Assembly (NCBI GenBank): GCA_951406725.2
Contig: OX597835.1
Coordinates: forward strand, 29,202,001-29,266,000
From: Octopus vulgaris
Taxonomy: Eukaryota
Direction: 5' to 3'
Length of the DNA stretch: 64,000 nucleotides
Below are positions 43,562-58,303 of this stretch, one piece after another. Numbering within the stretch: position 1 is the first letter of the stretch; every line of letters starts with the position of its first letter. The translations under genes and the position numbers were made by a program. Under the pieces are notes generated by a model. The model worked only from the letters and a program-made list of their open reading frames with translations, was not told the DNA's origin and ran no database searches.

Positions 43562-45125
43562 GTGTTGTAGTTAGTGTAGCTGGTGGATTAGGTGAATTTT
43601 CCCTGTCATGTCTTTTCACTTTCAGCTTAGGACGACTTTTTTATTATTATTTTCCCGCTTTTCTTCAATACAAGTCTTTATTTGAATATTCAATTGCTCC
43701 TCGTCGCATTATAAGGCTGTTGAATGCCAGTGTCGGTAGTACATGGTGTATCTCTGTTTTTCCGTCTGTAGGGATGGTCGGGCGTTGCTTGTTTCCACCG
43801 CTACAGCAGTTGGTGCTTTTGTGGTGTTGGGATTCTGTTGTTGAAGATATTACTGCCTTGATTGTTGTTACAGCTTTTGACCTTCTTGTGATGGTGGTGG
43901 TAAAAAAGCCGCTGTTCCTCGAGCTCCGATTTGTTGTTGTGATCAGAGCTCCTTCAAATGTGTGTTAGACCCACAAGTGTGGCACTTTGGTTTTCTGCCA
44001 TCCACCCTGACATGGAGTTGTGGTCTGTTGGGAAGCTCGATAAGGTCGTGGACCTTGTCTAGGGATTCCAGTTTTACTTGGATCTAAATCTCCAACCCGA
44101 TTCCGGACCAGTTTCCTTCCGATAATTTAAAATTTCTAGAAGCGAATCCGACCACAGCACACCAACTAACCACCAAATGTCTAATTCTGGTGGCACATCT
44201 GATATTTTAACTTTCACCACCCGCCGTCTAAGGTATGTGGGAAAGAGGAAACCTTCGTGTTTGCACTGGACCATTGATTGTTTTGGGGCCAGTGCCTCTG
44301 TGAGGAACCTCACTCCCACAGAACCATATTGTCTCCCTCGTGTGAGGAAATCAATATCAGTCTAAATGTTCTTCAAGCATTTTTTCTGCTTGGATATGTG
44401 GCGCATTGAAGATTTTCCTCGTCTTTAATGACACACATCTATATACGATGGTCCTTCTGGCCGTCTTCTCCATCCAATCTGAAGGAATAACAAGGGAAAA
44501 ACTCCTCTCTCTATAGAGGAGTTTTTCTGCTTCACTCAGATACGCATGTTTTTCTTCCAGGGAGATTTGCTCCTGCAATTTTGTTAGTCCTGCAAAGGCG
44601 TTGTTTTTATCGTGGCTGTTATTGTTGGTGTTGATTATATCGTTTTTGCTGCTGATGTTGTTCCTCTCATTATTGGTGTTAGTCGGAGCCAAAGCAACGC
44701 TGTTGTTTGTAGTGATGCTTGTATCGGTAACTGAAGTAGCCAAGCTACTCACTAACGAGGGGAAATCATTTATATTTTTCAAGTACTGCTTATTTTTCCC
44801 TCCCGTCAAAGCTTTAGTGTTGCTGTTGTTGTTGTTCCTACTGCTGTTGCTGCTGCTGCTGATGTTACAGTTGTCGTTGTTGCTGCTGTTATTGTTCGTA
44901 GTGGTTATGGCAGAGGTGATCTTGGTAGTGGTGTCGGAGTTGCTAGTTATGATTGGGATGGTCATTTTCTTTTGCCTACTTGCTTGTCTAGTAGTCGTGC
45001 CAAAAGTCGAAGAACTGTCAACCTCTCATTCTTGCGACGACACTCCTCTGTCTCTCGCTTCTCTCATAGAGATAATAACAGTGACAGATATAAAGTGTTG
45101 CGGTTTATATATACGCCAGCTAAGC
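43560..45125 (-). mobile_element. Tx1/L1-like LINE 5' region (ORF1 remnant)
   Basis: Low-complexity N-terminus, then VKVKISDVPPEL and VRVDGRKPKCHTCGSNTH (zinc knuckle); frameshifted. Confidence 0.7.
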
Positions 45126-56341: not shown

Positions 56342-56486
<145 letters not shown>

Positions 56487-56525
56487 CATGCATATATATA
56501 TATATATGTACGCATACACACACAT

Positions 56526-56556
<31 letters not shown>

Positions 56557-56699
56557 CATATATATATATGTGTGTGCGTGTGAATGTGTATACATACACA
56601 CATATATCTATTTGGTATTTTGTCCTGTACTTATCTCTCGTGAGTTTACGTATTTTTCACTCACTGGTGATGTCTTGTTCTTAATGTGCATTATATATA

Positions 56700-56733
<34 letters not shown>

Positions 56734-56740
56734 CACACAC

Positions 56741-56812
<72 letters not shown>

Positions 56813-56837
56813 TGCGCCTCCACACACCGCCTGTATT

Positions 56838-56882
<45 letters not shown>

Positions 56883-56899
56883 CCTATATGTATATATAT

Positions 56900-56952
<53 letters not shown>

Positions 56953-57100
56953 CATAAGGGGCATCAGCCATCTGAATGTGGCTAGGGACAGGGCGGGGTG
57001 GTTTAGCCCCAGGCGATCATCGACGTCACCAGGAGGGCTGAACCATCTCGGTGTCCTCTAGCCTGCAAAGGGAGATCATTCCCCGAAGATACGGATACTA

Positions 57101-57144
57101 CATACGGACCAGGTTTCGAGGTAATTGCCTCTTATCAACGCATG
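57101..57144 (-). ncRNA. Type I hammerhead ribozyme, U3-A8 core variant (copy 1)
   Basis: Minus strand CAUGCG-UUGAUAA-GAGG CAAUUA CCUC-GAAA-CC U GG-UC^-CGUAUG; all three stems pair; GUC site, cleavage predicted between 57107 and 57106. Confidence 0.88.
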
Positions 57145-57462
57145 GTAAGCACCGTTCTCCGACGAATAACTCTCTCCACAGGCCATATATATAAGGATTT
57201 TCACAGTAAACAAAGTCACTGATGTAGAAAAACCGTTCGAAAACAATAATAAATCTCTAAACGAGATATAAACAGTAACTGCTCTATAACATAAGGGGCA
57301 TCAGCCATCTGAATGTGGCTAGGGACAGGGCGGGGTGGTGGGGGGTGTGTGTTACTGATGCATTTAGCCCCAAGCGATCATCGACGTCACCAAGAGGGCT
57401 GACACCATCTCGGTGTCCTCTAGCCTGCAAAGGGAGATCATTCCCCGAAGATACGGATACTA

Positions 57463-57506
57463 CATACGGACCAGGTTTCGAGGTAATTGCCTCTTATCAA
57501 CGCATG
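57463..57506 (-). ncRNA. Type I hammerhead ribozyme, U3-A8 core variant (copy 2)
   Basis: Identical to copy 1, 362 bp away; cleavage predicted between 57469 and 57468. Confidence 0.88.
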
Positions 57507-57736
57507 GTAAGCACCGTTCTCCGACGAATAACTCTCTCTACAGGCCATATATATAAGGATTTTCACAGTAAACAAAGTCACTGATGTAGAAAAACCGTTC
57601 GAAAACAATAATAAATCTCTAAACGAGATATAAACAGTAACTGCTCTATAACATAAGGGGCATCAGCCATCTGAATGTGGCTAGGGACAGGGCGGGGTGG
57701 TGGTGGTGGGGTGTTACTGATGCATTTAGCCCCAGG

Positions 57737-57780
<44 letters not shown>

Positions 57781-58303
57781 CCTACGACCGCGAGTCCGCC
57801 GCCCTGACCACTGGCCCAGTGATCAGGACAGCGAACTCGCGGTCGTAGGATCGCGGTTTCGATTCCCAAACCGGGCATTGGGAGTGTTTATTGAGCGAAA
57901 ACACATAAAGCTCCACGAGGCTCCGGCAAGGGGTGGTGGTGAACTCTGCCGTAATCTTTCACCATAACTTTCTCTTCACTCTTTCTTCACAGACACGTGT
58001 ACCTTTAAAGGTACACGTGTCTGTGGAGTACTCAGCCACTTGCACGTTAATAAATGAGCTGCGACGTCAGTGGTGCCAAGCTGTATCGGCCTTTGTCTTT
58101 CCCTTGGATAACATTGGTGGCGTGGAGAGGGGAGGTTGGTATGCGTGGACGACTGCTGGTCTTCCATAAACAACCTTGCCCAGACTTGTGCCTCGGAGGG
58201 TAACTTTCTAGGTGCAATTCCATGGTCATTCATGACCGAAGGAGGTCACTATCACAATAGGTGGTGTAAGATTGTAGGTGTGTGAATATACATACACTCA
58301 CAC

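Follow-up and report, generated by a model that had tools for sequence, protein, structure and literature searches.

The U3-A8 variant of the hammerhead core is a published covariation (Perreault 2011, PMC3088659), in a report that also records the U10.1-U11.1 mismatch, and about 1,300 U3-A8 hits have been described in Schistosoma (Cervera and de la Pena 2014, PMC4209133). Palindromic helices III and cleavage as a dimer are likewise known in animal type I motifs (PMC4209133 among others), and a monomer clone of a mussel retrozyme cleaved at about 0.1 per min (PMC7229834), which counts against a strict dimer requirement. Penelope-like elements produce tandem or inverted, 5'-truncated insertions with a tail of 30-40 bp at (TA)n targets (Craig 2021, PMC8557442), and Li et al. 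2026 (preprint) derive non-LTR retrozymes from them, in Xenopus from their pseudo-LTRs (pLTRs). The kind of element, the U3-A8 pair and the dimer-type stem III analysed here are all already known.

Here we analysed a window of 64,000 nucleotides of Octopus vulgaris DNA, in which the original prediction had placed a hammerhead with U3 and A8 at 57101-57144. The motif is real and lies on the minus strand, which had been left unstated. According to the descriptor scan, its reverse complement reads stem I CAUGCG, core UUGAUAA, stem II GAGG-CAAUUA-CCUC and GAA, followed by stem III ACC-U-GGU, C17 and the closing strand of stem I, CGUAUG, so that three helices surround the core with stem I open-ended, the type I architecture. 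As predicted, positions 3 and 8 are the sole departures from CUGAUGA in the core, which has the published variant form U3-A8 and lacks the strict CUGANGA string. A second, identical copy, absent from that prediction, lies one 362-bp period away (Table 1). With pyrimidine 3 and purine 8 required (Y3/R8), the descriptor found 2 sites in the window and none in 60 order-2 Markov windows and, since genome matches also far exceed controls, the motif is not a product of chance. Rfam gave no hammerhead match in the window, where at E values up to 10 it returned only weak, chance-level matches, mostly microRNA models on TA runs or hairpins. It also found nothing on five relative loci, 3 of them C3-G8, so the miss in the window is not due to U3-A8.

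Table 1. Positions in the window of the hammerhead motifs, the tandem units and their flanks.
Feature	Position	Strand	Basis or remark
Type I hammerhead motif, copy 1	57101..57144	-	descriptor scan; covariation across relatives
Core UUGAUAA (U3 = 57138, A8 = 57133)	57132..57138	-	sequence; 31/31 pattern matches U-A
Stem II (4 bp) and 6-nt loop 2	57118..57131	-	descriptor scan; loop adenines kept
Near-palindromic stem III ACCUGGU	57108..57114	-	derived from ACCGGU by insertion of a U; perfect ACCUAGGU in some relatives
Predicted cleavage site, between 57107 and 57106, 3' of C17 (GUC triplet)	57106..57107	-	hammerhead consensus
Predicted long rod extending stem I	57060..57183	-	ViennaRNA folds
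Type I hammerhead motif, copy 2, identical	57463..57506	-	descriptor scan, folds
Retrozyme unit, 3'-most, 24-nt deletion, common 3' end abutting (TA)n	56950..57286	-	
Full 362-bp retrozyme unit	57287..57648	-	circular fold z = -3.3 vs 60 shuffles
Third unit, 5'-truncated, 92 bp	57649..57740	-	
(TA)n-rich microsatellite, insertion 3' end	56344..56951	.	
(TA)n run, insertion 5' end	57739..57780	.	

Both copies belong to a 362-bp tandem non-coding repeat with (TA)n on either side. The unit has no open reading frame, head-to-tail arrays reach 5 full units, and the arrangement is that of a retrozyme: at least two consecutive non-coding units, within 170-400 bp, each with a type I hammerhead. Across the genome searched (2.8 Gb in 227 contigs) the insertions are dispersed and multicopy, the unit search yielding 1682 candidates and 135 matches from the 40 that were scored. 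Among 72 insertions (loci L001-L118), 43 contain an inverted arm and 7 a word resembling a target duplication. Of the 114 family 3' ends, 110 fall within one of two fixed stretches of the unit, positions 355-362 and 38-48, which lie about 45 nt from each other, and TA-rich DNA lies beyond 88. The inverted arms, fixed 3' ends and (TA)n flanks match the insertion habits of Penelope-like elements. By the features that can be tested in sequence, the repeat fits a non-LTR retrozyme. Four sequencing runs were compared in the form of contigs, in which ends, strand and circles are invisible, and none gave a sign of transcription. In run X1, presumed to be RNA, the motif is spanned by contigs of which some have A8 and others G8; run X9 leaves the core uncovered; and run X13, which has another organism label, had a contig over 57491-57648 with one difference.

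Several observations concern the surroundings of these insertions. An older sister family (L157-L176) has 195 exact matches to one motif and a common 3' tail of about 40 nt, the most conserved part across families, which is a likely recognition site for the reverse transcriptase. At two places, retrozyme motifs recur at a spacing of about 1.38 kb (G000:C1:94322210-94326396, L213-L216) or 1.23 kb (C27:8171400-8184367), which suggests larger tandem duplications including flanking DNA. In the window, a GC-rich inverted repeat at 57778-57851 adjoins the insertion and overlaps the start of a repeat at about 57830-58260, which looks SINE-like; ARAGORN found no tRNA. Farther away, at 44357-45025 on the minus strand, an open frame of 222 aa is possibly an exon; it contains low-complexity stretches of N/S/T and ends in a C-terminal part free of repeats.

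Next, we examined how the stems vary among relatives, using 29 distinct rows picked by hand for diversity (31 of 184 in the alignment). Over all stems, 92.6% of 421 cells are paired, compared with 77% in shuffled and at most 53% in slid controls, and two-sided changes number 73, against 25 and at most 11, respectively. Pairing reaches 96.6% in stem I, 81.9% in stem II and 100% in stem III, with stems I and III partly fixed by the search pattern. The three adenines of loop 2, which the pattern left free, are invariant or nearly so in the 31 hand-picked rows, and in folds the extended stem I holds an internal loop. The dimer-type stem III of the original prediction has good comparative support, since its inner palindrome pairs, paired in 100% of cells, vary two-sidedly in 12 and 9 of the 29 rows. 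Its description as ACC-U-GGU with a 1-nt loop is right as to sequence, but a hairpin loop of 1 nt is sterically impossible; the helix would have 2 bp with a 3-nt loop in the monomer, and it has 6 bp around a U.U mismatch in the dimer. This 7-nt form with its central U.U is an odd one, descended from ACCGGU. With pattern-fixed letters left out, 160 of 184 contexts have a self-complementary stem III; counted as distinct types, 11 of 27 are palindromic where 4.5 are expected, as are 5 of the 6 common ones. Palindrome duplexes have energies of -4.6 to -14.9 kcal/mol and stem III hairpins of +2.0 to +6.0 kcal/mol. The helix is therefore short, unstable as a hairpin and kept as a palindrome, as in dimeric hammerheads. 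For a two-unit transcript the free fold has -244.8, the double hammerhead -240.4 and two monomers -237.2 kcal/mol. The double form thus betters two monomers by only 3.2 kcal/mol, and the free fold is more stable than either; it pairs core bases with the 3' strand of stem III and is an inactive form.

The explanation we hold to be likely is that the repeat is a retrozyme which is transcribed, cleaved as a double hammerhead, closed into a 362-nt circle and copied by Penelope-like machinery into (TA)n. Its anatomy, copy distribution, covariation and phylogeny are observed. By analogy with the known retrozyme family, which is the source for transcription, cleavage and circles, tandem units would be transcribed on the minus strand, and two hammerheads would pair through their palindromic stems III and swap stem I arms. 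Cuts at both predicted sites would free a 362-nt monomer (57468 to 57107) that could circularise and would refold as an inactive rod, and a Penelope-like reverse transcriptase with a GIY-YIG endonuclease would copy this RNA into (TA)n sites. Searches that left the two positions free returned only pyrimidine 3 with purine 8, and each of the four such states occurs in spreading masters, so the constraint on the 3-8 pair would be relaxed, not absent. Slow cleavage probably suffices for such an element to spread.

Regarding the states of the 3-8 pair, all 31 genome matches to the window motif were U-A when positions 3 and 8 were left free and the rest was fixed, so U3-A8 is inherited in the window's subfamily and is not the decay from C3-G8 that the original prediction had named as its possible refutation. 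A looser pattern gave 307 matches and no reversed controls, including 164 U-A and 29 C.A; both positions were free, and no transversion state appeared among the 100 matches listed of the 307. The broad pattern, which admitted Y3/R8 only, gave 1264 retrozyme-type matches against 4 controls, distributed as U-A 343, U.G 302, C.A 91 and C-G 528, the last obtained by subtraction. Because U4, G5, A6, A9, GAAAC, GUC and part of stem I were fixed in the search pattern, the invariance of these letters is by construction; among 120 BLAST-anchored sites, 29 of them left out as short, another core position was changed in only one. A subfamily of U-A copies (L021, L023, L072, L079 and others) also has U10.1.U11.1, reached via G.U (L011). 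Position 3 at first seemed to covary with position 1.4 (143 of 146 contexts), a pattern that was rejected as shared descent: with more families, U occurs with G in 10 and C with A in 13 of 184 contexts, and the pairing probability is practically nil.

These counts also correct the picture of U3-A8 as a rare variant, because with 343 of 1264 retrozyme-type motifs, and with 99 of the 100 Penelope-type motifs listed of 1968 (described below), it is common in this genome. The variant had further been expected to hide the family from CUGANGA searches. A strict search would miss 736 of the 1264 motifs, and also the large Penelope-type family, but the 528 C3-G8 relatives stay visible and Rfam misses C-G copies as well.

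We then ordered the states on trees. The first comprised 72 units, with the seven columns of the core taken out and a single divergent C-G row as root, and its bootstrap support was not fully settled; L078, new rows under 250 nt and rows lacking a BLAST hit were kept out of it. The second had 52 rows, obtained by thinning 109 near full-length units at about 98% identity and adding one family 2 reference. The order runs from an old C-G family through an early U-A group with ACUGCAGU and a ladder of U.G masters with ACUAUAGU to the window's U-A family, along which median tip lengths are 0.045, 0.027, 0.011 and 0.008-0.014. Inside the window's family, the 72-unit tree places a C3 clade comprising C.A and C-G subfamilies. 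For groups named after the first tree had been seen, the AU test rejects a single origin of U-A (p 7.7e-80), a clade of all C3 (1.6e-52), a U.G clade (2.8e-5) and trees in which U.G lies outside the U-A groups (1.2e-4). It only weakly rejects the window's U-A family as monophyletic (p 0.071, 0.02), and nesting of C3 inside U-A has modest support. On the 52-row tree, parsimony assigns G8 to A to the branch that leads into the window's family; the branch to the C3 clade carries U3 to C, and that to the C-G subfamily A8 to G. The window's U-A thus appears, from its place in the tree, to have been reached from a U.G lineage in one step, G8 to A, with the ancestral G8 in a CpG site. The C.A and C-G subfamilies are nearly sisters, so C.A could derive from C-G instead. 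One insertion, L117, joins a C.A copy and a C-G copy, and template switching of this kind could distort the tree.

The single-change states have themselves spread. U.G forms a long ladder of successive masters, mostly one family judging by the 100 matches listed of 302. A young C.A subfamily has 27 near-identical matches (29 minus one chance-like and one unrelated match) in 20 loci on 13 contigs. Independent CpG decay was rejected as its source, because the median nearest-neighbour distance is 0.003 and only 13 of 421 other CpGs have decayed, and the subfamily therefore spread while carrying the mismatch. The C.A copies in old family 2, in contrast to this, are scattered tips that look like CpG decay, and a third, older family has A8 with either C3 or U3. 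RNA editing as a driver finds no support, since internal branches have no strand bias (A>G 30 and T>C 30, versus G>A 22 and C>T 22).

These results bear on the proposal that U3-A8 was selected as a restored Watson-Crick pair, with mismatched states as short-lived dead ends. The double substitution had been read as a sign of selection for activity, a reading that lapses with a single step from U.G to the window's U-A; nor does it mark selection for a Watson-Crick pair, both single-change states having been amplified (U.G 302, C.A 91). In favour of the proposal, 871 of the 1264 motifs are paired, Watson-Crick lineages come after or beside both U.G and C.A in the tree, many family 2 C.A copies are scattered and decay-like, and U-A is kept in nearly all of the Penelope-type motifs listed. 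The long ladder of U.G masters, the young C.A subfamily and the third family with A8 beside C3 or U3 are nevertheless hard to reconcile with dead ends, and we regard the proposal in this form as doubtful. Given the proportion of paired motifs, Watson-Crick selection may still act as a bias, which does not exclude the retrozyme model and which is unreadable from the double difference alone.

A bolder reading, to which we give a somewhat smaller chance still, is that one ribozyme lineage walked round the compensatory square (C-G, U-A, U.G, U-A, C.A, C-G) with C.A rescued in trans. Obligate dimer cleavage would enable such a walk. Within a double hammerhead the site of one partner is cut by the strand of the other that bears positions 3 and 8, so siblings of the C-G or U-A type could process C.A RNA in trans, and this RNA, as long as it kept stem I and ACCGGU, could spread as a catalytic cheater. 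The stem I and ACCGGU common to the young C.A, C-G and several U-A subfamilies, the L117 hybrid and the presence of C.A copies in both Penelope fusions are in line with trans rescue. It cannot explain the large U.G family, however, as the ACUAUAGU palindrome does not pair with ACCGGU. If the walk were true, copies of every state would survive in the genome, ready for testing in their natural form.

At the other extreme, catalysis could have been irrelevant to recent spread, the element being mobilised by way of its 3' end and by pairing at (TA)n while positions 3 and 8 drift, since transitions are frequent and G8 often lies in a CpG. The spread of U.G and C.A masters would agree with this, as would 3' ends at unit positions that lie away from the cleavage site and a first stem II pair that is mismatched, U10.1.U11.1 included, in 13 of 29 rows. 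Published activities point the same way: in a pairwise mutagenesis of a type III hammerhead only the G3-C8 swap rescued activity and all other single or double core mutants had low activity (Roberts 2023, PMC9901934), from which U3-A8 itself may be slow, and 8 of 9 Xenopus retrozyme dimers were inactive in vitro (Li 2026, preprint). Such low activities would mean that slow cleavage is enough, that the native context rescues it or that catalysis is dispensable. Against the last of these, stem III changed two-sidedly and stayed a palindrome, as also happened on the branch leading to the window's family (columns 189 and 192), with ACCGGU, ACCUGGU and ACCUAGGU in succession; the loop 2 adenines are conserved, other core changes are nearly absent from the BLAST-anchored sites, and transversions are missing among the matches listed with both positions free. 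We therefore find dispensable catalysis improbable and retain the retrozyme model with its relaxed constraint.

The source of the copying machinery was addressed by searching 238 overlapping loci with four Penelope-type proteins and inspecting the 20 hit-bearing ones, which revealed two direct junctions between retrozyme and Penelope-like sequence, L073 (gap -2) and L115 (gap 7). In L073 the usual 3' end of the unit is fused to a 5'-truncated endonuclease fragment in a manner resembling a template jump. L115 is an inverted insertion with one arm of retrozyme and the other 91% identical to a full-length element with reverse transcriptase (RT) and GIY-YIG domains, the ORF of which is frameshifted in the copy examined. 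Both fusions involve C.A copies, and their partners are of different element types. A third candidate, L226, was rejected because (TA)n separates its parts. Co-insertion (in these 2 junctions only), 5' truncation, the inverted arm, the short tail and the (TA)n target are thus all seen, and L073 and L115 provide junction evidence for Penelope-like machinery inserting retrozymes. It is very unlikely that the unit instead belongs to an autonomous Penelope-like element as its pLTR or 3' UTR, the observed copies being 5'-truncated forms of that element: the insertion anatomy is alike and Xenopus retrozymes are reported to derive from pLTRs (Li 2026, preprint), but head-to-tail arrays run to 5 full units free of ORFs, the unit stood as 3' UTR or pLTR beside an RT and GIY-YIG ORF in none of the 20 inspected loci, and the two Penelope-like elements examined in this genome have 3' regions dissimilar to the unit, one of them with a hammerhead motif of its own.

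These two elements, which we assign from linker motifs, presumably correctly, to the Neptune and Nematis clades, deserve a description in their own right. The young Neptune-like element (L115, L226, L156, L277-L289; for example G000:C1:94758300-94763100) has a U3-A8 hammerhead motif in its 3' UTR, with core UUGAAAA, a 3-bp stem I, the palindrome ACCGGU and a UA triplet. Its pattern has 1968 exact matches and no controls, and the 100 matches listed comprise 99 U-A and one U.G. Cross-cleavage between this motif and the retrozyme was rejected by inspection, as the palindromes match but the stem I arms do not. The Nematis-like RT and GIY-YIG element (L149-L156, for example L150:4413-6173; 479 candidates) is young, with copies 94-98% alike and a long, microsatellite-like 3' region. 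A descriptor scan of eight 9.9-kb loci and 30 shorter ones found no hammerhead in it, and Pfam had no family for its ORF, the Atlas neighbours of which carry HTH_animal, RVT_1 and GIY-YIG. Other UUGAUAA motifs resembling hammerheads, with a stem I rich in A and U and a stem III that is a palindrome or nearly so, occur at L153:2068 (-), L106:877 (+) and L019:2766 (-), the first two downstream of GIY-YIG ORF fragments. Unrelated C3-G8 hammerhead-like motifs with palindromic stem III lie near retrozyme loci at L160:1804 (+), L175, L248:63 (+), L276:2604 (-) and L002:2717 (+).

In the literature searched, which held few subscription papers and excluded repeat databases, we found neither a cephalopod retrozyme nor amplified U.G or C.A subfamilies, nor an ordered amplified series over all four Y3/R8 states. 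What this genome contributes is a set of roughly age-ordered, amplified subfamilies with C-G, U-A, U.G and C.A at a catalytic pair that is normally fixed. With this series one can ask, on natural sequences, how a catalytic core passes through the intermediate of a compensatory change and how much cleavage a retrozyme needs for its spread.

Compared with known systems, the octopus repeat is closest to the retrozymes of Mytilus galloprovincialis (350-390 bp, PMC7229834), with which it shares a short tandem non-coding unit with one type I hammerhead each, a self-paired RNA, dispersed copies and a mollusc host. It differs in its U3-A8 core with U.G, C.A and C-G sister subfamilies, in that its expression as circular RNA is only predicted, and in the inverted arms, fixed 3' ends and fusions to Penelope fragments found here. 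The Cercyon Penelope-like hammerheads of Schistosoma (PMC4209133) are alike in U3-A8, high copy number, a palindromic or absent helix III and the dimer model; they are minimal, whereas the octopus motif is of canonical size (6-bp stem I, 4-bp stem II, 6-nt loop 2) and sits in a non-autonomous repeat, and the accessible sections on Cercyon do not mention wobble or mismatch subfamilies. The variants of Perreault 2011 (PMC3088659) share U3-A8, U10.1-U11.1 and, in repeat-type motifs, palindromic stems III, and they are single examples across genomes, whereas here the states form an ordered series within one element lineage. Finally, the EN+ Penelope-like elements of Neptune and Nematis types (PMC8557442) make the same tandem or inverted 5'-truncated insertions with a short tail at (TA)n and have a hammerhead near the 3' end, as does the window's unit, which is unlike them in that it lacks an ORF and resembles neither of the 3' regions examined in the two elements of this genome.
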